64,000 bases of DNA from Dehalococcoidia bacterium (GTDB taxonomy: Bacteria > Chloroflexota > Dehalococcoidia > Plut-88900), in the NCBI GenBank assembly GCA_965116945.1, contig OZ220734.1:598610-662609 (forward strand). Direction: 5' to 3'. The notes below the pieces were generated by a model, which had not been told where the DNA came from, ran no database searches, and worked only from the letters and a program-made list of their open reading frames with translations. The first letter of the stretch is position 1. Every line of letters starts with the position of its first letter. The position numbers and the translations under genes were made by a program. This document shows, piece after piece, positions 1,492 to 49,652 of this stretch.

Positions 1492-1640
1492 ATCCGGCTT
1501 AAGAAGGGAAACCCTCACCCCTTTGGTCCCCCTCTCTCCCTCGAGGGACTCGGGGCAGGCTCTTCGACTTCGCTCAGGGCAAGCGGAACCCCAACCCCGT
1601 GGGGTGGATGCCCGGCCGGAGTCGGGAATGACGGACAAGG
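1492..1640. repeat. Composite intergenic repeat (modules A + B + C)
   Basis: GAAACCCTCACCCCTTTGGTCCCCCTCTC...CTTCGACTTCGCTCAGGGCAAGCGGAACC...CCGGCCGGAGTCGGGAATGACGG. Confidence 0.8.
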
Positions 1641-2454
1641 AAGGGTGGCGGTGGAAGATACCGGACGGTTTGCGCAGATAGTCGGCGACGCCTGTACCGA
1701 TGCGGGGTGTCCGCTCCATGGGACGGTCCACACCAGCATCGACCCTGCGACAGCCCCATACTTCCGAGAGGATGTGGACGAGACACGAGATATTCTCGCT
1801 CTGGGGCAGTCCCGTCCACCGGAAGTGCTCTACCACCCCAGGGGATGGGAGCGGGGACCCGTGACCGCCGTTCGTAGACCGGAGCTCTCCGATGGTGACA
1901 ACGGTGGAATCCTTATATGGTCTGTTTGTTTTGAGTCGGGCAACCTCCGACTGCTCGGACCGACCGGCAAGGTCTACGCCGGGGGAGTCCGAGGAGGGCG
2001 CTATGGCCCAGGTGAGCATCTTTACACCGTGCTCCAGAGCGTCGCCTGACGGGGCGATACCGTTGCGCCACGTCAGTGGGGCGCTCACTCGGCTGTGGCC
2101 CTTGTAGGGGGCATGCCGTGATTTGTCCGGGAACCTTCCTTGCATGGGGCGGGACGGTGATAGATCGCTGCGAAGGTTTAGGCGTTGGGCCTTTGGGCAG
2201 CGCTTGATGTGGGTGTTGGGTAGGGAAGGACTGGGGAGGAGGCGCGTGTCGGGGGCCGGGCGGTGGGATACCGCTCGGCTGAGACGGGGCTTATGTAGGC
2301 CGGTGCGACTCATGGGACTCCTTTAGTTCCGCCAAGGGGCGGATGTTCCACCTTTCCTGTGATGGGCGCCGAGGTAGGAGGTCGGATGCCTGGGGTGGAA
2401 TATAGTACAGGTGTTCAGGTAGGGTCAAGGGGCGAATGTCCCACTTTTGGGGGG

Positions 2455-2585: not shown

Positions 2586-3164
2586 TTATCGCTGCCAGCC
2601 TCTTGAACAATCACCGCTACGGTTTTCTGCGAATAGATCTAGGCTATCATCCGGCCAAGGAGTTTTATCCTTCCTTTGGAATGCCCTGCGAACTTTGGGC
2701 ATTACTCTCCTGGCGACTCTTCTCCGAGGCCACTTATAGATGGCTGAGAAAGAGTCATTGCCGTCAATATTGAGTGCCAGCCGCTGTGGAATCAGGTGAG
2801 GGTTGCGGTCTTCCGGGTCCTTCCGGTAATCAGGGTGATGCGGCAATAGGAGACCAACAACCCCACACCTCTTATTTCTTGGTCGGTCGATGATACTGGC
2901 GGAAATTTCCCAATCGACGTGTTTTCTCTGCCAAGTGCATGGACCAATCAGGACGATGGTTACTACAGCGTCGGCAATGTGGTCATCTCGAATCCTGCGA
3001 CGTATTTCGTCCAGAGGGAGGTTTTCATCGTGGATATCCCCAGGGCTGACAGACTTGTCTATAGCTTTACTGTTCAGTGCCTGCACTAGGCGGTTCTTGT
3101 ACTCCTGGTCGCCCTCGTGGTAGTAACTGATGAATACTTTATATTTGGTTACCTTAGGAGCCAT
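2586..3164 (-). CDS. TIR-domain protein (ThsB-like / DUF1863 TIR_2 family), second TIR gene of the cassette
   Basis: From the internal Met: MAPKVTKYKVFISYYHEGDQEYKNRLVQALN...AVVTIVLIGPCTWQRKHVDWEISASI. This matches the bacterial TIR signature (KVFISY.H.D ... VLIG..T..R.WV.WEI with the conserved Glu). AGGAG lies 9 nt upstream of this ATG; the longer ORF start (3239) would overlap the upstream gene by 60 nt. Confidence 0.75.
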   Translation of the reverse strand: MAPKVTKYKVFISYYHEGDQEYKNRLVQALNSKAIDKSVSPGDIHDENLPLDEIRRRIRDDHIADAVVTIVLIGPCTWQRKHVDWEISASIIDRPRNKRCGVVGLLLPHHPDYRKDPEDRNPHLIPQRLALNIDGNDSFSAIYKWPRRRVARRVMPKVRRAFQRKDKTPWPDDSLDLFAENRSGDCSRGWQR

Positions 3165-3178
3165 AGCTTTTGCTCCTA

Positions 3179-3619
3179 CTACAAAACCCAACCCCAGGAC
3201 ACCAGCACCGTCGAAGTTACTAAAACATAGAATGGCCATATAGATATCGAACCCAAAAGACAGCGCACAACCAAAGGAGACCCCATGCCAACTGGAATTA
3301 CTTTATAAAGGTCGGTACGCTCCAAGTTGCCTTCGTGCAACTTGGATACAAAGTTGTTCTGCGATTTGATGAACGCCCTTTCAAGCGCCAAGTAATAAGA
3401 ATCTAGGAACATGAACAACAATGTTGGCGCCAAGGCTATCAGCACATGCCTAGGCTCTCCCGTCCGCGCCACCAGCACCAGAATGGCTGCGACAAGGGTG
3501 ACGCACCACACCTTGCAATAGCGGCTGTTCTCCGCCATTCGGGTGATTACGCCCTGCATTATCTTAAGGTGCTTTTGGACAGCGGGGGAATCGTGGTCTA
3601 TTTTCGGGTTTCCTGCCAC
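3179..3619 (-). CDS. Small (146 aa) predicted 3-TM membrane protein; candidate effector of the TIR cassette
   Basis: Hydrophobic segments CKVWCVTLVAAILVLVA, HVLIALAPTLLFMFLDSYYLAL and a C-terminal SISIWPFYVLVTSTVLVSWGWVL. Tightly packed between two TIR genes (12-15 bp gaps) on the same strand. No recognisable SLOG, Macro or SIR2 domain. Confidence 0.6.
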   Translation of the reverse strand: MAGNPKIDHDSPAVQKHLKIMQGVITRMAENSRYCKVWCVTLVAAILVLVARTGEPRHVLIALAPTLLFMFLDSYYLALERAFIKSQNNFVSKLHEGNLERTDLYKVIPVGMGSPLVVRCLLGSISIWPFYVLVTSTVLVSWGWVL

Positions 3620-3630
3620 GTTTATGCTTC

Positions 3631-4125
3631 TCAGTGTTTCTTCCGAATCGAGATTGCCTCTTCAACCCAATCTGCAAGATTGTCTCGTATGTGGGAGTAA
3701 AGGTTCTTGCTGTTTGTATACCCACTGCCAAAAGTCTTCACGATGTTTGATAAGTTCCTTTGACCAACAGTGAAATTTTCAAACGGATTTCGTCCTTTCA
3801 GGGCGGTTCTACCATTCGCATTCTTCAGCATATGGATGTAGATGCCTAGTAGCCCCTTCTCGTCGTTCCAGGTTTTTTTTATTTCATATTTGATCCACTT
3901 GCGTTCGGCTGTCTTGCTCCCTATTAGGACGATAACGCAGGATTTCCCAAACATTTGTCTGTCAATCCATTTCTGGATTGCGGCATCGCCGCCTCGCGCT
4001 ATAGTCTCCCACTCGTTATCCGAAACGGGACCATCTTCCTCAACGACGCCCATGTTCCTAATCGTAGCTGCACGCCAAGCGTCACGGGTGTAGTGAAAGC
4101 TGAAGAATGTTCTCCTCTTGACCAT
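3631..4125 (-). CDS. thsB: Thoeris ThsB-like TIR-domain protein
   Basis: MVKRRTFFSFHYTRDAWRAATIRNMGVV...CVIVLIGSKTAERKWIKYEIKKTWNDEKGLLGIYIHMLKNANGRTALKGRNPFENF follows, almost motif for motif, the Bacillus cereus ThsB pattern as I recall it (VFFSFHY..D..R..VRN ... CVLIGS.T..R.WV.YEI ... GI.I ... KG.NPF). GAGAGGA lies 7 nt upstream of the ATG. Confidence 0.8.
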   Translation of the reverse strand: MVKRRTFFSFHYTRDAWRAATIRNMGVVEEDGPVSDNEWETIARGGDAAIQKWIDRQMFGKSCVIVLIGSKTAERKWIKYEIKKTWNDEKGLLGIYIHMLKNANGRTALKGRNPFENFTVGQRNLSNIVKTFGSGYTNSKNLYSHIRDNLADWVEEAISIRKKH

Positions 4126-4450: not shown

Positions 4451-4972
4451 ATGGACGCCAGTGAGCTGGTAACGAAGCTGCTGAAGGGAAACCGGAGTAT
4501 GGTCAGGAAGGCTTTTGACGGGCTTTCGGATGAGGAGGTTTCGATGAGGCCGAGTGGGGATTGCAATTCCATGGCGTGGCTGCTGTGGCACCTGTGTCGG
4601 GTGGAGGATGGATTTATATCGGCGCTGGAGGGGTCGGAGGAACTCTGGAACCAGGGGTGGTCGGAGAAGTGTGGGATATCCGAGGAGACGGAGGGGATGG
4701 GTTACGGACACAAAGCGGGAGACCTGGAGACATTCAGCGTGGGGTCGATTGATGCGCTGAAGGAGTATTTCGGGGAGACGGAGAGGAGGGTGGCCGGGTA
4801 CCTGGCGTCGTTGAGCCCCGAGGACCTAGACAGGGAGGTGCCGGCGATGGTGGGCGAGGGTATGGTGCCATTGGCTGCGCATTTACAGATTCTGGTGAAT
4901 GAGGCGTTGGTGCATGGGGGGCAGATTGCTTACTTGAGGGGGATGCACAAGGGGATGGGGTGGTATTTCTAG
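4451..4972 (+). CDS. DinB/YfiT-like (DUF664) four-helix-bundle metal-dependent protein
   Basis: 173-aa protein with a DinB_2-like pattern (WLLWHL.R.ED...H.GQI.YLRG). GGAGGAG RBS upstream. Confidence 0.55.
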   Translation: MDASELVTKLLKGNRSMVRKAFDGLSDEEVSMRPSGDCNSMAWLLWHLCRVEDGFISALEGSEELWNQGWSEKCGISEETEGMGYGHKAGDLETFSVGSIDALKEYFGETERRVAGYLASLSPEDLDREVPAMVGEGMVPLAAHLQILVNEALVHGGQIAYLRGMHKGMGWYF

Positions 4973-4984
4973 AGCGTGAGGGGT

Positions 4985-5195
4985 GGGAAGGGAACCCTCA
5001 CCCCCTTTATCCCCCTCTCACGCCACAGGCGCACGCCTAGGCGCATCTTCGACCCTTAGGGCCTTTAAGGGAGAGGGGGAGAGAAGAACAGAGGCAGAGG
5101 TTGGCGCATCTGCGCCAACCTCTGCCTCTAGTTCAGTACTGGGGAGATGGGAGGGATGGATTCCCGATCGGAGTCGGGAATGACGGATGAAGAGG
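4985..5195. repeat. Composite intergenic repeat (modules A + D-hairpin + C)
   Basis: GGGAACCCTCACCCCCTTTATCCCCCTCTC...GGGAGAGGGGGAG...AGAGGCAGAGGTTGGCGCATCTGCGCCAACCTCTGCCTCT (perfect 19-bp stem)...GGATTCCCGATCGGAGTCGGGAATGACGG. Confidence 0.8.
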
Positions 5196-5205
5196 AGGGA
5201 GAAGG

Positions 5206-6207
5206 CTAGGTGAGGGTCAGGGCGGCGGCGCCGTTGATATGGCCTTGTTTCAGGTCTATGAGGGCTTCGTTGGCGGATTCGAGGGGGTAGGGGTGGACGT
5301 GGGTGCGGACTGGGATTTCGGCGGCGAGGGAGAGGAGTTCTTCGACGTCCTGTCGGGTGCTGTTGGCGGCGCTGCGTATGACTTTCTCGTCGTAGAGGTG
5401 TCGGGTGTAGTCGAGGGTGGGGATGGGGGTCATGTAGATGCCCGCTAGGGAGAGGAGACCACCCTTCTCCAAGTGTTCAAGGGCCAGGGGGACCAGCTCG
5501 CCGGCTGGGGCGAAGATGATGGAGGAGTCGAGCTTGTTGGGCGGGCCCTTTTGTGCGGTTCCGACCCAAACTGCACCCAGGTCTCGGGCGAGGGAGGCGT
5601 GCTGTTCGCTTCTGGAGAATACGTAGACTTCGAGCCCCTGGTGCACGGCTAGCTGGATGACTATGTGGGCCGATCCGCCGAACCCGTACAAGCCCAGCCT
5701 GCCACCGGGTGGTACGTCGGCAAGACGGAGGGCGCGGTAGCCGATTACGCCGGCGCAGAGGAGGGGCACGGCCTGGAGGTCTGGGAAGGCGTCGGGAACA
5801 GGGAAGGTGAAGGACTGGTCGCTGAGGAGGTAGTCGGCATAGCCGCCGTCGACGGTGTAGCCGTTGAAGAGGGCGGCTTCGCAGAGGTTTTCACGGCCTC
5901 GGAGACAGAACGAGCAACGGCCGCAGGTGCTGTGGACCCAGGGAATACCGACACGGGTGCCGACCTCCAGGCCGTTCACGCCTTCGCCCAGCTCTTGAAC
6001 GGTCCCAACTACCTGGTGGCCGGGGGTCAGTGGGGACTTCCTGGGCGGGAGCTCTCCCTCGATAACGTGGAGGTCGGTGCGGCAGACACCGCAGACAGAA
6101 ACCCGAACGAGGACCTGACCCGGGCCCGGGGAGGGGATGGGGACATCGTTGAGTTCGAGCGGTCGGCGCTCCACTGGTGTGGGAGCGCTGAAGGACATGG
6201 CTCTCAT
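5206..6207 (-). CDS. Zinc-dependent alcohol dehydrogenase (MDR superfamily)
   Basis: CGVCRTDLH, GHQVVGTV and C.RC.FC structural-Zn motifs plus a GLYGFGGSAH Rossmann motif. Start moved to the internal MRAMSF to remove a P/S/T-rich N-terminal extension. Confidence 0.8.
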   Translation of the reverse strand: MRAMSFSAPTPVERRPLELNDVPIPSPGPGQVLVRVSVCGVCRTDLHVIEGELPPRKSPLTPGHQVVGTVQELGEGVNGLEVGTRVGIPWVHSTCGRCSFCLRGRENLCEAALFNGYTVDGGYADYLLSDQSFTFPVPDAFPDLQAVPLLCAGVIGYRALRLADVPPGGRLGLYGFGGSAHIVIQLAVHQGLEVYVFSRSEQHASLARDLGAVWVGTAQKGPPNKLDSSIIFAPAGELVPLALEHLEKGGLLSLAGIYMTPIPTLDYTRHLYDEKVIRSAANSTRQDVEELLSLAAEIPVRTHVHPYPLESANEALIDLKQGHINGAAALTLT

Positions 6208-17239: not shown

Positions 17240-17725
17240 GGTGAATAAGCCCCCGGGGGCCGGGGGAATGATACAACATCGGGGTGGGGAGGTGGGGGAC
17301 AGCGGTGATGCAGTGGAAACGGGAGGATACCCCCGACCCCACAGAGGAACCCTCTCCCCCTTGGTCCCCCTCTCCCTTAGGGCCTGTAAGGTAGAGGGGG
17401 AAAGAAGAACAGAGGCATACCCCATGCGCTAAAGCGCATGGGGTATGCCTCTAGTTCAGTACTGGGGGGTGGGGAGGTGGGGGATGATGACGGTATTATG
17501 GGTGTACGGGTGGTCCTGTCCCCGGCGCTAGAATCACCCTCACCCTAGCCTTCTCCCGTCAAGAGGTCTTTGCGTAACTCCGCGTTAGGGGAGCGCGACA
17601 CCCCACCCATTCCGCTCTTGAGACCCCCTTCGAGAGCCTCAGGACATGCTTCGACTCCGCTCAGGGCGGGCGGAATCCCATACCACAGGGCATGGTTTCC
17701 CGATCGGAGTCGGGAATGACGGAGA
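17240..17725. repeat. Cluster of repeat modules (C-like, A + D-hairpin, C-like, A-prime, B, C)
   Basis: GGGGTGGGGAGGTGGGGGA occurs on both sides of the A+D unit (17281-17300 and 17461-17480). D-hairpin AGAGGCATACCCCATGCGCTAAAGCGCATGGGGTATGCCTCT (perfect 19-bp stem) sits at 17411-17452. Confidence 0.8.
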
Positions 17726-17728
17726 GGG

Positions 17729-18145
17729 TTAGCTTGGGTCGTGGTTGAGCATCCAGTTGATGCCGAACTTGTCGGTGCAGGCGCCGAAGTAAGAGCCCCA
17801 GAACATGTCCTGCTGGGGCATGGTTACGGTTCCGCCCTCGGAGAGTTTGGCAAAGAGCTGATCGGCTTCCTCACGGGTGGAGGGCATGTAGGAGATGGAG
17901 AAATTGGTGCCCATTATCGGCGGGGGACCAAAGGCCGAGGGCATGTCGCTGCCCATGAGGACGCTGCTGCCGATGGTGTAGGAGACGTGCATGACGTTGT
18001 TACGCTCATCTTCGGCGATGGGCATGTCGTCGGGACCTTCGGCGAAGGTTGTAAAGATGTCATATTCACCGCCGAAAATGGAGCGGTAGAACTCAAAGGC
18101 CTCTCGGCAGTTGCCAGGGAAGTGAAGATATACGAAGAGGGACAT
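17729..18145 (-). CDS. PhnB-like VOC-superfamily protein (3-demethylubiquinone-9 3-methyltransferase domain)
   Basis: 138 aa; YTIGSSVLMGSD and a ...FGI.W... C-terminal pattern typical of the PhnB family. Confidence 0.7.
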   Translation of the reverse strand: MSLFVYLHFPGNCREAFEFYRSIFGGEYDIFTTFAEGPDDMPIAEDERNNVMHVSYTIGSSVLMGSDMPSAFGPPPIMGTNFSISYMPSTREEADQLFAKLSEGGTVTMPQQDMFWGSYFGACTDKFGINWMLNHDPS

Positions 18146-26889: not shown

Positions 26890-27045
26890 CTGTTTACCCA
26901 ATACCGAATCACCCTCACCCTAGCCCTCTCCCGTCGAGGGAGAGGGGACGAGACCACTCCCACCCGACCCTTCGAATTATCTCAGGGCGAGCGGCCGAAC
27001 ACGGGGATGGATTCCCAATCAGAGCCGGGAATGACGACTGGCGAT
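26890..27045. repeat. Composite repeat (modules A-prime + B + C)
   Basis: ATCACCCTCACCCTAGCCCTCTCCCGTCGAGGGAGAGGGGA...CTTCGAATTATCTCAGGGCGAGCGG...GGATTCCCAATCAGAGCCGGGAATGACGAC. Confidence 0.8.
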
Positions 27046-33038: not shown

Positions 33039-33139
33039 CCGGTGTTGCGGTCTCCTGTATTGCGCGTCGGGTCCGTGCAATGGGAGAAATTACCACGCAG
33101 GGGGTGGAGGCGCAAGGATGGGGTGACGATTGGACTAGC

Positions 33140-33215: not shown

Positions 33216-33282
33216 GCCAAAGGAGTTCGGGTTATTCAGTTGTGGGGGGAGGGGTTTTGATTGTTCTGTTGGGTTTTGGGGC

Positions 33283-33646
33283 GGCGATGGAAGGTCCGGG
33301 ACTCTATGGGAAGAAATCGGCGGGTCTATGGATATGTGAACGGGCCAGGCGGTCCGCCATAGAGGTTGAACCACCGAAAGAGCGGGCAGAAGCCCGCCAG
33401 AGTCGTCGTAGTAGACGCCAGAGGAATCCGGTTTACGGACGGGATTCCAACAAGGCCGAATGGGGCCTTCAGATGCACCGGCAAGGTCAATGCCGGTGGC
33501 ATAGACGCGGTTCTTGCGGTATCCGCGCAGACGGCATGTCCTTCAGAGAGGATGCGCCGTAGAGAGTGTATGGACCTTCCATCGCCTGGAAGTTAGGGAA
33601 GGGGCACGGGACCCGGTGGGTCGGGTGGGCTTCCCTGGGTTTTTTG
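33283..33646 (+). ncRNA. Candidate structured RNA (or MITE) closed by a 15-bp perfect inverted repeat and ending in an intrinsic terminator
   Basis: GGCGATGGAAGGTCC (33283-33297) is perfectly complementary to GGACCTTCCATCGCC (33572-33586). Internal hairpins include GCGGGCAGAAGCCCGC and CACCGGCAAGGTCAATGCCGGTG. The 3-prime hairpin AGGGAAGG...CTTCCCT plus TTTTTT lies at 33594-33646. Confidence 0.4.
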
Positions 33647-33749
33647 GTTCCTCCTTGAGGTGGGTGTCGGGTCTAGACTGAGGAGGAATATAGCACATGT
33701 GTTTGGGTGGGGTCAAGCGTGCAAAGCAGGGTGCGCTAGCATCTATTCT

Positions 33750-34847
33750 TCAGGATTTTACAGCCCACAAATCGAATTCCTGGAAAGCCTCGGAGCGTAT
33801 ACCGAAATGACTAGCTTGACGCTTTCCAATGGAGGCAGACCCCGCATTGCATCGAGTCTGAATGCGCCAATCCGTATTCGACAGCGAAGCACGCAGGATT
33901 TCAACTGGGTCGGTATTGCGATCAGGTATGCGTCCGAACCGTATCACCATCCGAGCACCGTCTTTACTTACGTTTGCACAATTTTGCCAAACCTGCGAAA
34001 GCTGATTGGCAAAATCCTCGGGACTACTATGGATGAGTTGTTCTTCTTGAGAATAATCTACAGAATCTTCCCCTCCTAGGAACCATAACCTGAGCCATTG
34101 ATCAGGGCGATAGGTCCTAAGGCCATAATATGGAGGAGAAGTAATTACCCAATCAAAACGTTGCCCTTTTAGCCTTGCATTAAACAGGATTGAGTCCCTG
34201 CTATCTCCAAGAATGACACGCGAACAAGGCTGGGGAAGAGGGTCTTGATAGAACCTTGCGGCCCGGCGGGCCACTACTTCTCTAATATCTATTTTCCTCG
34301 GCCTAAGCTCATGCTTACGCCAGAAGGAGACGGCATATCTTGGCTTTGGTGCGTAAGTACGGGGACATTGATTGGAGAAATAAGATGGGCTCCCTTTTGA
34401 AACAGGCCCATGCAGGGCTCCAAGCATAATAGCCCGGAGGGCTATGCGGGAAGTTTCACGACAACTGTGCACTAGTGAGTTGCGTATTTTTATAAGAGAT
34501 AGTAGTGTTGATTCCTCAAAAGCTAGCTTCCAAAACTCCCCGGACGGAATATCTTCAGGGTTGCCCTCTTGTTCAAGAATTTTGTCAAGAGTGCGTAATA
34601 TGGCTTGAGGGTTTGTTGATACGAGCTTGGCCTCCGTTAATGCGGCTGCGAGCGGATGGCTATCTATCCCCACACTTGCTAGACCTTTAAGGCGGGCTGC
34701 CATATTTGTGGTTCCACGCCCACAGAATGGGTCAAGTACAGATACCGTAGTCCTTTGTTCCCTGCTAAGAACTTTCCGCGGAAATGAGAGGGGGAACATC
34801 GTGAAGTAGGGACAGATTGCGTTGAGTGAGTCGGGACTAGTGAGCAT
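33750..34847 (-). CDS. SAM-dependent amino-methyltransferase (N6-adenine / N4-cytosine DNA MTase-like): motif I DPFCGRGTT, motif IV SPPY
   Basis: Start at MLTSPD..., whose ATG overlaps the TAA stop of the upstream ATPase (TAATG). VLDPFCGRGTT, and later VITSPPYYG. Sits in a low-GC island. Confidence 0.7.
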   Translation of the reverse strand: MLTSPDSLNAICPYFTMFPLSFPRKVLSREQRTTVSVLDPFCGRGTTNMAARLKGLASVGIDSHPLAAALTEAKLVSTNPQAILRTLDKILEQEGNPEDIPSGEFWKLAFEESTLLSLIKIRNSLVHSCRETSRIALRAIMLGALHGPVSKGSPSYFSNQCPRTYAPKPRYAVSFWRKHELRPRKIDIREVVARRAARFYQDPLPQPCSRVILGDSRDSILFNARLKGQRFDWVITSPPYYGLRTYRPDQWLRLWFLGGEDSVDYSQEEQLIHSSPEDFANQLSQVWQNCANVSKDGARMVIRFGRIPDRNTDPVEILRASLSNTDWRIQTRCNAGSASIGKRQASHFGIRSEAFQEFDLWAVKS

Positions 34848-36928
34848 TATTTCTGGATTGCTCTTACCCAGGTTGTATTCCTGCCTTCGGGCGTAAAGGG
34901 CTCCCAATGTTCACCTTTCTTGCCTAATAAGCTATTCATAGCCTTCTCAACCAAGAGATAAGCAAACTGCCCTCGATCATCCATATGCTCAGGTAGCATT
35001 TCTAGGAAGAATGCTCTTACCGTTCCCCATGCCACACCATCGTTCTTGATTTTCTTGAACATTTCACTATTGCTGAGGGTTTCAATAACATAGGTCTCCA
35101 GAGATTCTAGTGCATCTACTGATTCAAACTTGGGGCATTCTGTATTCTGATTGCGAGAACTTTGCGCTTTAGATAATGCAGACGTAGCATTCCCGATTAG
35201 CTTTTGGAGTTCCTTTGCATAGGTGGGTATGGAAGGGCGATCGTAATGTCCATCGAGCAACTGGTCATGCAGGTCCTCAAACGATAGAACCCGCAATGGA
35301 ACAGGATATTGCTTGCCTTCTACAGCAGAACTCCAAAAGACCCCTTGACCTCGTATTGTCTCATTCAGCAATGTACTCAAAATATCTTGACCAAAGTGCG
35401 CGTTAGCTGCCTGAACATTCCTCAGGTCTCCGGCGGACAAAAGATGGAACAGAAACCAGTTGTCACCCTGGCTCAGAATTTCAAATGGTATGCTACCTGG
35501 CTGCTGCGTAACTAATACCGCTCCCAGATCATATTTACGACCTTCTTTCACCCATTGGATGTAAGGTTCAGATGTTACGGTTCTTTCATTGAGTACTGCC
35601 TGGGCCTCTTCTATAACAGCAATAGTAGGGATTGTTTTGGGTTGAGCGGCAGTGAACTGCTCTTGGTTTCGGTCAAATATTCGACGTAGGATCAACCCAG
35701 ACAAGACAAGCGCTGGACCAGCAGATATTTGCGAAACGTCCACTACACACAATTTCCCATCTGTTAGGGCTTTCAAAATCATATCCATTAGTTGGCTTGA
35801 TGGATCGTGTAGCATACGTACTATACGGGTCGCATTAGCCCTTGCTGCTAAGGCTTCCATTTCCTGATTTGGCTCCAGTCCAAGCAACGTTTTTATTTGT
35901 TGAATCGAAGCGTTATTTCCTTCGGAGTAAATTAAGTTGACCAACTCTATCCAATTATTTCGTCTGATGCTTCTGAGTTTTTGGACGTTCTGTTGATCTT
36001 GGCGTTCCACCGGAAGCGCTATAGATACAACATCTTCGGGATTCAATCTGCGAATATCTAAACGGATTGCTCCTGCTACGAAGGATTGATAGAACTCACT
36101 GGGAGCGCTTCTGGATGTGAACACAACTAGGTGCTCTTCCATTCCGGGGACGTCACAAAGGCCGGGGCGGCCTTTGTCATCTGGCCAGAAATATTCTCCG
36201 TCTGGATCAAAGAGGATCGTGCCCACTGGTACTCTACGTCCATGTCTTTTCTCTACAGTAGGGGTCCGCTCATATAGCTTGCTGAAAAGGAGTTTATTGA
36301 GGTTGGATTTGCCAAAGCCAGCGCGGGCAAATATAAAACTCCTTCTAGCCACCAAACTATCTACTGCAAAGTTCACCTTGACTTCTTCAGATTGTGGCTG
36401 CATCCATTCCTCTGTTGCCAAAGATGAAGGGCCATAAAAGTACTCGCCTAGGGCAAAGTGACCGATTGTCGCACCTTCCACGTTGTGCCCAACTATTTCC
36501 CTAAGTACATCCCCGGAAAGAAAAGCGACGCGGCTACCCACATGTGGAAGGCGTCGGTGTGACGCTACAAAGTTGAGTTTTCCTTCAGGCGTAGCCCGGA
36601 CAACCCCTAATACCCTGATGTTGACCTGATACCTGAGGTATTGCTCCCTTAGATCCTCAGGGATGGGACGGTCTTCCTGTATGGCCCTTATGTTGAATTC
36701 CTCCCCTGAGCCAGAGGACAGCCTACCTTGTGATGATAGTGAGGCTATCCTGCCCAATACGGCTTCGTCAGGAGTCTCCAACTGTACCAACAGGAACTGA
36801 CCATGCATTGGGATGCTCTGGAAATCCTGTCGATACGGCAAAGCTAAATCAGCGTGGAATTCCATACCGCCTTCACGGAATCCCCGGAACACTCCCACTA
36901 TGTTTTCTTGAGTGAATAACTTAATCAA
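34847..36928 (-). CDS. HerA/FtsK-superfamily ATPase (DUF87-like) with N-terminal HAS-barrel-like domain
   Basis: Walker A ARAGFGKSN, Walker B IAVIEEAQ and LVTQQP motifs. N-terminus IVGVFRGFREGGMEFHADLAL...HGQFLLVQL resembles the HerA HAS-barrel. Confidence 0.65.
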   Translation of the reverse strand: MIKLFTQENIVGVFRGFREGGMEFHADLALPYRQDFQSIPMHGQFLLVQLETPDEAVLGRIASLSSQGRLSSGSGEEFNIRAIQEDRPIPEDLREQYLRYQVNIRVLGVVRATPEGKLNFVASHRRLPHVGSRVAFLSGDVLREIVGHNVEGATIGHFALGEYFYGPSSLATEEWMQPQSEEVKVNFAVDSLVARRSFIFARAGFGKSNLNKLLFSKLYERTPTVEKRHGRRVPVGTILFDPDGEYFWPDDKGRPGLCDVPGMEEHLVVFTSRSAPSEFYQSFVAGAIRLDIRRLNPEDVVSIALPVERQDQQNVQKLRSIRRNNWIELVNLIYSEGNNASIQQIKTLLGLEPNQEMEALAARANATRIVRMLHDPSSQLMDMILKALTDGKLCVVDVSQISAGPALVLSGLILRRIFDRNQEQFTAAQPKTIPTIAVIEEAQAVLNERTVTSEPYIQWVKEGRKYDLGAVLVTQQPGSIPFEILSQGDNWFLFHLLSAGDLRNVQAANAHFGQDILSTLLNETIRGQGVFWSSAVEGKQYPVPLRVLSFEDLHDQLLDGHYDRPSIPTYAKELQKLIGNATSALSKAQSSRNQNTECPKFESVDALESLETYVIETLSNSEMFKKIKNDGVAWGTVRAFFLEMLPEHMDDRGQFAYLLVEKAMNSLLGKKGEHWEPFTPEGRNTTWVRAIQK

Positions 36929-36936
36929 CGCGCCAC

Positions 36937-38157
36937 CTAGTATCTTCGTTGTGCAGGATCAACATCTCTTAGTTGGAACTCGTCAAGGCTAGGCGACTCG
37001 GAGCCCAGCGCCGCACGGAGACCGGAAATAACCTCGTCTTGAATAATATCAAAGTCAAAATCGACCAATGCTGCGTTCTCATGTGCCTTCTGAAGACACA
37101 TAGGATAAAAGGGAACAGGGAAACCATTATTAGCATCAGACAGCAGGCATCCGAGTATCGCTCCCGCTTCCCTTTCTTGCGGGACAAATATATCAACCGG
37201 CCAAACCGGATCGTTGGATCTGCTACCGAACTTTACGAAGAACATTTTACCAGCGACGAATTTGTTTACCTCACCACCTTCCAGTCCTACGTCATCCCCT
37301 CGGGCATATTCAGCCCAAATATAGGCCTTCTTCTCCAAATCTCTTGGTACTAGCGTGTAACAAGGATATCCAGCTGTAAGTATGTGCTCCAAAGACATGG
37401 CCAAACGATAGCGATCCAGAACTTTGGAGTGCTTTGCCAGACCAACCAGATAGATGTTCCTGCGATGCTTTCGCTTGTGTCTCTCAATGGCTTGCTTAAA
37501 TCCGTCGCTCAGGCGTATGAACAAGTCCTCGGCAAAAACCTTGCTCCTCAATAGACCATCACGGACTATGATTGTGTCAGTACCGAATTCCTTCTCAGTT
37601 AGTATTGAGAAGAGCACCGCCCATTCCATGAGCTCACGATAAACTTGAACCCAACTCGGGCTGGAAGGCCTGTCGTCATCATTCCTTCGAATCATGTTGC
37701 TCAGTCGCGTTAGGTCTTGGACATTTAGGAATTCCATCATCTTACCTAGCGCCGTGATTGGAACACCTTTGTCATCAAACTGCATGCGGCTGAGTTCAGT
37801 TACGCTAGTTGTAGGTGATATAGCCTCTAGGCAATACTCGTTGTTGCTGGAATCAACAACACGCACCAATTGCACCAGAAAAGGGTCAAACTGGATTCGA
37901 TTGTTGCCTCCGTCCGTTCCAACTAGAGAAAAGGAGGTGGTCATTCTTGGCTGTACCTGGCGAACTGTGGATTGGAGTGGCTTAATTTCGACCCTGAGGT
38001 CGTCCAATAGGCTCATGTCCTGCCTAATCCGATTCTCGATCTCGCCCTTCAATATGTCGTAGCTCTGTAAATCTATCATTACATCCTCTAGTCGACTTAG
38101 TGAAGCCCACAGTGACGCGGGTTCGATATATCCTACCACTTGCCGATCTGAGATCAT
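36937..38157 (-). CDS. NurA-like nuclease (RNase-H-fold, HerA partner); start uncertain (M at 38157 or 38079)
   Basis: SLVGTDGGNNRIQFDP (NurA motif-I-like D) and a C-terminal GFPVPFYPMCLQKAHENAAL (NurA-like Y...AH). The ORF's first 117 aa overlap leuC on the opposite strand and were rejected. GAGGA RBS lies before the 38079 ATG. Confidence 0.55.
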   Translation of the reverse strand: MISDRQVVGYIEPASLWASLSRLEDVMIDLQSYDILKGEIENRIRQDMSLLDDLRVEIKPLQSTVRQVQPRMTTSFSLVGTDGGNNRIQFDPFLVQLVRVVDSSNNEYCLEAISPTTSVTELSRMQFDDKGVPITALGKMMEFLNVQDLTRLSNMIRRNDDDRPSSPSWVQVYRELMEWAVLFSILTEKEFGTDTIIVRDGLLRSKVFAEDLFIRLSDGFKQAIERHKRKHRRNIYLVGLAKHSKVLDRYRLAMSLEHILTAGYPCYTLVPRDLEKKAYIWAEYARGDDVGLEGGEVNKFVAGKMFFVKFGSRSNDPVWPVDIFVPQEREAGAILGCLLSDANNGFPVPFYPMCLQKAHENAALVDFDFDIIQDEVISGLRAALGSESPSLDEFQLRDVDPAQRRY

Positions 38158-49116: not shown

Positions 49117-49190
49117 ACGCAAGCCACATAGACGAGGCGACTCGGGGGCCTTCCAGTTGATTGGAAGGCCCCTTTCTTCTACCATCTATT
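49041..49190. repeat. Direct repeat copy 1 (iscA 3-prime end plus its terminator)
   Basis: About 150 bp and about 92% identical to 49502-49652; the two copies flank the HicB-like gene. Confidence 0.8.
49144..49180 (+). terminator. Intrinsic terminator after iscA
   Basis: GGGGGCCTTCC AGTTGATT GGAAGGCCCC followed by TTTCTTCT. Confidence 0.6.
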
Positions 49191-49501: not shown

Positions 49502-49652
49502 ATTGAACGGCAAGGGTTTCGAGTTCACGAACCCTAATGCCAAGACAACGTGCGGGTGCGGGAACTCCTTCTCGGTGTAGACTCAAGCAACATATACGAG
49601 GCGACTCGGGGGTCTTCCGGTTGATTGGAAGGCCCCTTTCTTTTAGGATTTG
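49502..49652. repeat. Direct repeat copy 2 (diverged duplicate of the iscA 3-prime end and terminator)
   Basis: ...AACGGCAAGGGTTTCGAGTTCACGAACCCTAATGCCAAGACAACGTGCGGGTGCGGGAACTCCTTCTCGGTGTAG...GGGGGTCTTCCGGTTGATTGGAAGGCCCCTTTCTTTT. Confidence 0.8.

Follow-up and report, generated by a model that had tools for sequence, protein, structure and literature searches.

A folded element upstream of leuS in a Dehalococcoidia bacterium is probably a degenerate member of a terminase-derived multi-copy family

In a Dehalococcoidia bacterium (GenBank assembly GCA_965116945.1, contig OZ220734.1, positions 598,610 to 662,609) the gene leuS is adjoined by a folded element of about 300 nucleotides (nt) closed by an inverted repeat, which we analysed within the surrounding 64,000 nt of DNA. 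This stretch is called the window, and all positions refer to it. The element adjoining leuS is termed copy 1, and copy 2 is a diverged second copy at window 1637-2147. With a probability of roughly 0.6 we regard copy 1 as a degenerate member, devoid of an open reading frame (ORF), of a lineage-restricted, multi-copy, terminase-derived minus-strand element. In a full unit, a strong sigma-70 promoter would precede a short leader bearing a ribosome binding site (RBS), a hairpin domain and a core of 0.3-0.5 kb closed by a long-range helix, and part of the core probably goes back to a phage terminase large-subunit (TerL) gene, in which it corresponds to the first half of the RNase-H-like nuclease domain. 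Other copies of the family start with ATG and keep a frame open through the unit, copy 1 having presumably lost the start codon and gained stops. A literature search returned nothing relevant.

A covariance model (R1) built from the contiguous conserved half of the copy 1 element recovered all orthologues plus one new site at 2036-2147 (34.7 bits, E 2e-8), which belongs to copy 2. Following the suggestion to look for further copies, blastn found no second full copy within 64 kb; it was the covariance model that detected the diverged one. In the place equivalent to the Shine-Dalgarno (SD)-like box of copy 1, copy 2 carries AAAGGAG, 6 nt and an ATG at 2313. The mechanically called ORF (2313-1306, 335 amino acids (aa)) extends past the terminator of copy 2 and has no Pfam hit, and the tail shares a 24-mer at 1159-1182 with copy 1. 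For copy 2 the fold z-scores are -4.7 (minus) and -1.5 (plus). Right after the 24-mer, five copies of TTGATTGAA(C) follow each other at intervals of ~10-20 nt (1176-1240); downstream of copy 2 the minus strand is here C/A-rich and G-poor.

When the copy 2 ORF was compared with other proteins, 315 relatives were found at E<=1e-3, all of them in ENA/NCBI assemblies of the same Chloroflexota clade. Among the best 120 of these 315, four contigs, LeuS-orthologue contigs included, each carried 4-5 ORF-detected copies. The family profile matched 162 proteins among 1.84 billion representatives. ORF relatives are 55-78% identical at the aa level, their conservation begins at the ATG and does not continue beyond the 3' arm of the closing helix, and a conserved module of 47 aa (DSTVVT..VVEHFRW..EVWGC) occurs 1-4 times in tandem.

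The origin of the family was traced by scanning its alignment against the IMG/VR viral contigs. Sixteen loci matched, within ORFs of 479-511 aa, and the viral ORF L224 hits Pfam Terminase_6C and the PHROG 'terminase large subunit'. Aligned to this ORF by hhalign, the family profile covered TerL residues 278-393 (97.9%, E 3e-13), and a library-wide profile search reached proteins of 500-590 aa at residues ~290-490, with E from 1e-8. Viral TerL matched a copy 1 orthologue (L081) in a single minus-strand frame (tblastn, 32% over 113 aa, E 1e-9), and copy 2 showed 50% identity to TerL over 80 aa (tblastx). These comparisons show that the family is homologous to the nuclease domain of the terminase large subunit. 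The 47-aa module is part of this homology, and the motifs GIDLAG, DSTVVTIGE, VVEH..W and W.C.R(V/I) are common to the family and to phage TerL (PF17289 Terminase_6C; PHROG 5909). In copy 1, the minus-strand translation retains YATGIDLAGASE and, more fully, runs ...KNRVYATGIDLAGASEG...KPDSSGV...LSVVQPLWRTAW; BLASTP aligned RLRGYRKNRVYATGIDLAGASE of its frame to RLQTPDPGKTYVAGIDLAGESE of the L224 TerL over 22 residues (E 0.001).

The family nevertheless differs from TerL in several respects. It retains about half of the nuclease domain and no ATPase domain, has the 47-aa module in tandem and a variable first catalytic Asp (in GIDLAG), is present several times per genome, every copy under a promoter of its own, and gives neither a Pfam or PHROG hit nor a predicted fold; copy 1 has no ORF at all. 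The intact ORF, ATPase domain and full nuclease domain with catalytic acids that mark a functional TerL are thus seen together neither in copy 1 nor in the family ORFs. Moreover, terminase segments homologous to the element fold with z-scores of only -2.1 and +0.3. Since genuine terminase genes lack a strong fold, the family has acquired both features, strong folding and long-range helix, itself and did not inherit them from its phage ancestor.

We then considered coding capacity. Copy 1 has no start codon and 1-5 stops in each of the six frames and is therefore a non-coding relic. Neither ATG, GTG nor TTG stands at proper spacing behind its SD-like box, and gene calls inside the leuS-side element were absent from all loci inspected. 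A small ORF behind the box was rejected for want of a start codon and because indels among relatives disrupt every frame, and a 'STAB-SD'-type role of the AAGGAGG box as a 5' stabiliser was dropped since copy 2 shows the box to be the RBS of the family. In the family at large, 105 of the 120 best ORFs cross the unit in one frame and 96 begin with MSR or MTR; under a substitution-only neutral model, divergence of the observed extent would leave only 2-4% of copies with an open frame. Intact members might code for a genuine protein that evolves fast and stems from the terminase nuclease domain, interfering for instance with phage DNA packaging at the edges of defence islands, with the leuS copy as its pseudogene. 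Promoter, SD and ATG, the open frame kept far above the neutral expectation, the strong conservation of the TerL-homologous module and the position of both window copies next to low-GC defence islands (ThsB-like TIR 2586-3239; type II methyltransferase and HerA 33750-36928) are in line with this. However, AlphaFold2 on a family ORF (75 sequences) predicted no secondary structure (pLDDT 50, pTM 0.13), and matches to Pfam or PHROG were missing for the family ORFs. Their composition is rich in Arg, Ser and Pro, all six frames have a negative codon log-likelihood, and GC content at codon position 2 is 0.56 compared with 0.41-0.46 in real genes. The protein would cover only half of an RNase-H fold, repeated in tandem 1-4 times, with a variable first catalytic Asp, C-terminal tails and stop positions that are not conserved, and, in copy 2, a terminator inside the ORF. 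We consider such a protein improbable.

The positions of all features of copy 1 and copy 2 are collected in Table 1. The perfect 15-base-pair (bp) inverted repeat of the original prediction is present as described, GGCGATGGAAGGTCC and GGACCTTCCATCGCC pairing without a mismatch across 274 nt. Likewise, the two local hairpins GCGGGC-AGAA-GCCCGC and CACCGGCA-AGGTCAA-TGCCGGTG were both found, the latter at 33476-33498, as was the strong hairpin with its stem base AGGGAAG/CTTCCCT (33595-33636) and, behind it, the T6 (33640-33645). In dinucleotide-shuffled windows, 0.075 perfect 15-nt inverted repeats with arms 100-800 nt apart are expected per window (present in 3 of 40 shuffles), and the repeat alone is therefore marginal and no more than suggestive. 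Folding of copy 1 exceeded that of shuffled sequences on both strands, with z-scores of -5.9 (plus) and -7.7 (minus). The hairpins would be a mixture of helices shared within the family (closing helix, Ha, Hb) and palindromic codon runs (Hc, which reads T-G-I-D-L-A-G).

Table 1. Features of copy 1, copy 2 and the leuS promoter in the window
Feature	Position	Strand	Remarks
Closing helix P1, arm 1	33283-33297		GGCGATGGAAGGTCC
Closing helix P1, arm 2	33572-33586		GGACCTTCCATCGCC; 'protein' conservation of the family stops at the equivalent arm
Helix P2	33301-33305 with 33563-33567		ACTCT with AGAGT; C-G to A-U in type C (alignment pair 24/126)
Hairpin Ha	33531-33560		outer stem CGGC/GCCG conserved; inner stem different in each type and in copy 2
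Hairpin Hb	33506-33527		from covariation alignment, RNAalifold and comparison with copy 2
Hairpin Hc	33476-33498	minus	codons A-T-G-I-D-L-A-G-A, first-aspartate motif of the terminase nuclease domain (frame-1 translation)
Hairpin domain HP0	33594-33639	minus	base AGGGAAG 33595-33601 / CTTCCCT 33630-33636; earlier read as plus-strand terminator
C/A-rich, G-poor tail	33240-33282	minus	follows the helix; contains the 24-mer recurring at 1159-1182
Remnant reading frame, related to TerL nuclease domain	33234-33542	minus	no start codon; closed upstream by a stop
SD-like box relic	33646-33659	minus	CTCAAGGAGGAACC; identical in 8/8 loci
Promoter P1 of the unit	33716-33687	minus	TTGACC 33716-33711, 18 nt, TG-extended TATATT 33692-33687; points to lower coordinates, into the element
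leuS promoter P2, outside the element	33087-33115	minus	TTGCGC, 17 nt, TAATTT; read by eye from the sequence, missed by the scan
Copy 2 core	1637-2147	minus	covariance-model match; diverged; closing helix CAAGGAAGG 1639-1647 / CCTTCCTTG 2134-2142
Copy 2 GVDLAG hairpin (Hc-like)	1963-1985	minus	from sequence comparison
Copy 2 promoter	2428-2399	minus	TTGACC, 18 nt, TATATT; near-identical to P1
Copy 2 intrinsic terminator	1415-1384	minus	14-bp stem, then CTCTGTTTTT

Relatives of the locus were reached via a LeuS cluster at 90% identity (187 members), and 10 of its loci were compared. A homologous element occupies the same place in the same orientation in 7 related loci, that is in 8 loci including the window. 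Three types can be distinguished: type A in the window and L087 (304-nt core), type B in L081-L083 (~400 nt) and type C in L084, L091 and L221 (~395 nt). L087 is the closest relative of the window (LeuS 98.4% identical). L222 holds a further variant, which departs after GGCGATGGAAGG. In its positions 1-386, upstream of leuS, homology ends at this sequence and restarts with GGACTCT ~110 nt on, the contig ending before the remainder; this suggests a hairpin-rich insertion within the closing helix. The element is missing from L089 and L090, which have a 228-nt leuC-leuS spacer and a LeuS ~96% identical to that of element-bearing relatives, and from L086 (143-nt spacer, LeuS 73% identical to that of the window). 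Between element and leuC the cargo is different in each locus. Further afield, the best GTDB representative LeuS, within Dehalococcoidia/Chloroflexota, is 69% identical, and nhmmer, blastn and the covariance model found the element in none of 80 GTDB leuS loci. Plasmid and phage collections gave no blastn match to the element. A metagenome pattern scan with GGACNNTCCATCGCCTGG yielded only chance matches among those listed, the best candidate (L122) being unrelated coding DNA, and matches of the same pattern in viral contigs were unrelated as well. In L087, an IS481-family transposase gene with an rve domain (4693-5817) that is absent from the window lies between leuS and a luciferase-like gene.

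This distribution bears on the proposal that the element is a miniature inverted-repeat transposable element (MITE) whose 15-bp terminal repeats mark the edge of an island. Like a MITE, it has a perfect inverted repeat around a folded interior and is present in some close relatives and absent from others, and the multi-copy character predicted by this proposal was borne out by copy 2 and by the several ORF-detected copies per genome. The repeats, however, are not terminal. Homology of copy 1, its orthologues and copy 2 extends ~130 nt past one arm, through HP0 and the RBS to the promoter, and ~40 nt past the other into the tail. The idea of an isolated element of ~300 nt thus holds as far as repeat and hairpins are concerned and fails as to isolation, the conserved unit running from ~33240 to ~33720 with the promoter included. 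Target-site duplications were not found in the two copies for which DNA was compared: L089 and L090 differ over the entire leuC-leuS spacer, so that neither duplicated flanks nor a clean empty site are seen. The copies are strongly diverged and not near-identical, blastn found no second full one in 64 kb, and other copies have coding-type features. Copy 1 is therefore not a classical MITE, and we see next to no chance for this explanation.

The strand of the unit was assessed from transcription signals. P1 was the sole sigma-70-type promoter detected around copy 1 by pattern scan. The same site was called by the promoter scan in L084 (-10 box TACTAT) and L221 (TAATAT); in the alignment the -10 box reads TATTAT in L082 and TACTAT in L081, and A2 and T6 of this box are kept in 8/8 loci. 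A plus-strand promoter was found in none of the 4 loci scanned. Since the minus strand carries both the sole conserved promoter and the SD box, and since leuS is served by a promoter of its own, copy 1 forms a transcription unit in its own right, on the minus strand and upstream of leuS. The helices themselves do not indicate the strand: G-T and A-C cells number 10 and 13, and three other counts are likewise mixed, so that wobble counts were not used for the strand call. GC skew is positive (~+0.1 to +0.3) nearly throughout the window regardless of gene strand, leuS mRNA being C-rich and leuC mRNA G-rich. The G-richness of the plus strand of copy 1 reflects this window-wide skew and is not specific to the element; strong replication-strand asymmetry of this kind can mislead strand calls for RNA candidates.

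A plus-strand non-coding RNA had also been put forward, one that would run divergently from leuS and terminate at the hairpin with T6. The plus strand does satisfy the pattern of an intrinsic terminator, with a 5-bp local stem followed by GTTTTTTGGT, and its fold z-score of -5.9 would suit a structured transcript; the larger stem AGGGAAG/CTTCCCT is followed by GGG and only then by T6. The context is not that of a terminator, as a conserved compact hairpin with a U-run at the 3' end of a plus-strand unit is not what the related loci show. HP0 contains a structured insert of ~85 nt within the hairpin in types B and C, the position of the T-run reads GTTGTGG in L084, and the conserved promoter of the opposite strand overlaps the supposed 3' flank. 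The T6 is the complement of the A-run that follows the SD-like box on the minus strand. Judged from sequence, the 'terminator' is the complement of the 5' part of the minus-strand unit, consisting of RBS relic, A-run and 5' hairpin domain. Copy 2, with its minus-strand promoter and terminator and its poorly folding plus strand, speaks against it as well. With no plus-strand promoter in the 4 loci, this proposal had to be abandoned, and copy 1 is not a plus-strand small RNA; we give the idea very little credit.

Read on the minus strand, the element could instead be a long regulatory leader of leuS, either T-box-like or another riboswitch. The orientation agrees with leuS, and an intrinsic terminator was not found between P1 and leuS, where there is only a C/A-rich tract. 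The leader itself could not be upheld, since leuS has its own promoter P2 (17-18 nt spacing), which is kept across genera in loci with and without the element, and the element is wholly absent from relatives whose LeuS is 96% identical. Neither a T-box model nor any other cis-regulatory one matched the 331 nt around copy 1, even at E<=10, and a paralogue sits at an unrelated locus. Copy 1 is thus not a leuS riboswitch, and a leader function is hardly credible. Between promoter and start codon, the 5' untranslated region of leuS (33039-33100 in the window; also L081-L091, L221 and L222) exists as two unrelated alleles of ~55 nt. These do not track the element type, type C occurring with both, which makes the region a recombination mosaic.

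Returning to copy 1 as a degenerate minus-strand unit, we think that P1 is probably still active and reads toward leuS. It would then send a highly folded non-coding transcript in the direction of leuS, and the C/A-rich tract ahead of the gene could load Rho. As there is no intrinsic terminator before leuS, any present effect would be read-through into, or interference with, the leuS promoter rather than a dedicated RNA function.

We also assessed conservation of the paired structure, for which a covariation alignment of homologous loci had been proposed. The sample comprised 7 sequences from about 3 lineages, and the conserved parts formed the core alignment. The closing helix is kept at the equivalent place in the 7 related loci. 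In the core alignment 89.2% of cells were paired compared with 35-44% when partners were slid, 9 pairs changed on both sides, and the covariation score of 0.162 (0.088 in shuffles) was reached by none of 500 shuffles. RNAalifold independently predicted nearly identical helices with 10 compensatory pairs, and the base of the HP0 stem covaries as well, reading GGGGGAA/TTCCCCC in L084. The evidence for a conserved paired structure is good, yet not overwhelming because it comes from 7 sequences in about 3 lineages.

Several of these results weigh against the view of copy 1 as a mere relic. P1 and the SD box are conserved beyond what is expected of a neutral relic, and as types A, B and C have all lost the ATG, the intact 5' end must have been preserved by something other than an ORF. 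Copies 1 and 2 fold far more strongly (z-scores of -7.7 and -4.7) than genuine terminase genes, and the compensatory changes in the helices suggest selection at the nucleic-acid level. In addition, the direct similarity between copy 1 (type A) and terminase is weak (E 0.001, 22 residues), the link resting on the orthologues and copy 2.

Alternatively, the whole family, copy 1 included, may be a functional structured minus-strand RNA of ~0.45-1 kb with its own promoter, built partly from an old terminase fragment, the ORFs being by-products of the C-rich strand. The chief argument for this view is the excess folding, which is not seen in real terminase genes. Moreover, copy 1 orthologues and copy 2 both retain the closing helix, at whose 3' arm 'protein' conservation ends, and the stem sequences of Ha and Hb differ among types A, B, C and copy 2. 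Much of what argues against a protein counts here in favour: the codon statistics, the absence of a predicted protein fold, the unconserved stop, the copy 2 ORF that overruns its terminator and the unconserved catalytic Asp of GIDLAG. Many representatives match residues 1-34 alone or later pieces alone, as in frameshifted copies. On the other hand, 105 of 120 best ORFs spanning the unit in frame, 96 of them beginning with MSR or MTR, are not expected from a neutral 2-4%. Neither strand is favoured by the G-U and A-C cells, GNRA or UNCG loops are absent in either orientation, there is no Rfam match, and the covariation comes from three or four independent lineages only. We consider a functional RNA unlikely, albeit worth keeping in mind.

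Comparison with known RNAs gave no assignment. The original prediction could not match copy 1 to RNase P, transfer-messenger RNA (tmRNA), signal recognition particle (SRP) RNA or 6S RNA, and the Rfam scan agreed: none of the Rfam 15 covariance models, including RNase P, tmRNA, 6S, SRP, T-box, OLE/GOLLD/ROOL/HEARO and group II intron, reached its gathering score in the window. At E<=10 there was only noise on 801 nt and on 331 nt around copy 1, and types A, B and C in relatives gave zero Rfam matches. ARAGORN found neither tRNA nor tmRNA. A 22-nt stretch, GGAAGGTCCGGGACTCTATGGG, which resembles the CR-I region of RNase P, was dropped as a lead after the covariance models gave no match on the 331 nt or on the longer relatives. 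With OLE, GOLLD, ROOL, HEARO and RNase P RNA the element shares a similar size and many helices closed by a long-range stem; it differs in that copy 1 and its longer relatives match no covariance model and in being dispensable and hypervariable among near relatives. Retrons, DRT, bridge RNA, omega RNA and integron attC were likewise dismissed, as no reverse transcriptase, recombinase, IscB/TnpB or integrase adjoins the element in the loci inspected. Some resemblance exists to pneumococcal BOX and enterobacterial ERIC/BIME sequences, which are dispersed modular repeats, transcribed and highly folded. Like the element, these occur in many copies, mainly between genes, have a strong predicted secondary structure and carry internal modules in variable number. 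The element differs by a much longer unit (0.45-1 kb) equipped with a promoter and RBS of its own, by its descent from a phage gene and by a far greater divergence among copies.

The surroundings of both copies are similar, each bordering, directly downstream, a low-GC defence island. On one side of copy 1 lies leuS on the minus strand, on the opposite side a low-GC island of 4.5 kb followed by leuC on the plus strand. This island (33750-38100, GC 0.44-0.50) encodes a type II DNA methyltransferase, a HerA/DUF87 ATPase (also hit by the PADLOC model mad8) and a protein of ~390-520 aa without Pfam, PHROG or PADLOC match; an integrase or recombinase was not seen in it. The island at 2586-4125 (GC 0.48), directly upstream of the copy 2 promoter, encodes a ThsB-like TIR protein, a component of Thoeris (Pfam E 4e-18), along with two more minus-strand ORFs.

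Dispersed repeats of a different kind are found at 1289-1536, 2440-2511, 4990-5199, 17321-17475, 17688-17744 and 27003-27036, and also beside the promoter in L081, L082 and L087. Their conserved flanks (GGGAACCCTCACCCCC..TCCCCCTCTCCC..TTAGGGCC..TAAGGGAGAGGGGGA) enclose a perfectly paired hairpin whose sequence varies, AGAGGCA-N12..N12-TGCCTCT (as at 17411-17452 and 5090-5129; 1375-1424 is 88% complementary). The hairpin at 1415-1384 scores as a minus-strand intrinsic terminator and is the terminator of copy 2. With stems covarying between copies, these repeats look like REP-like terminator modules. Elsewhere in the window, a palindromic 28-nt sequence, GGGGCCTTCCAGTTGATTGGAAGGCCCC, is present in two copies 436 nt apart (49145-49172 and 49609-49636).

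In summary, copy 1 carries little weight as a single locus, and its annotation as a riboswitch or small RNA would be wrong. It also calls for caution in RNA-structure scans, as strong z-scores and compensatory changes are possible in sequence derived from a coding gene. Of greater interest is the family, a set of clade-restricted repeats derived from a phage packaging gene, with near-consensus promoters and stronger folds than terminase genes. Rather speculatively, a terminase fragment may have been captured, given a strong promoter, multiplied and reshaped into a folded RNA of 0.45-1 kb that is possibly also translated. Such an element, lying where variable defence islands end downstream, might counter phage, for instance as a decoy or dominant-negative partner of the incoming terminase, or mark a hotspot of cargo exchange, and would be of an undescribed kind. 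Should the family have a function, be it as RNA or as protein, this would represent an unusual recruitment of a phage structural-gene fragment by the host and would offer a handle on the organisation of island hotspots.

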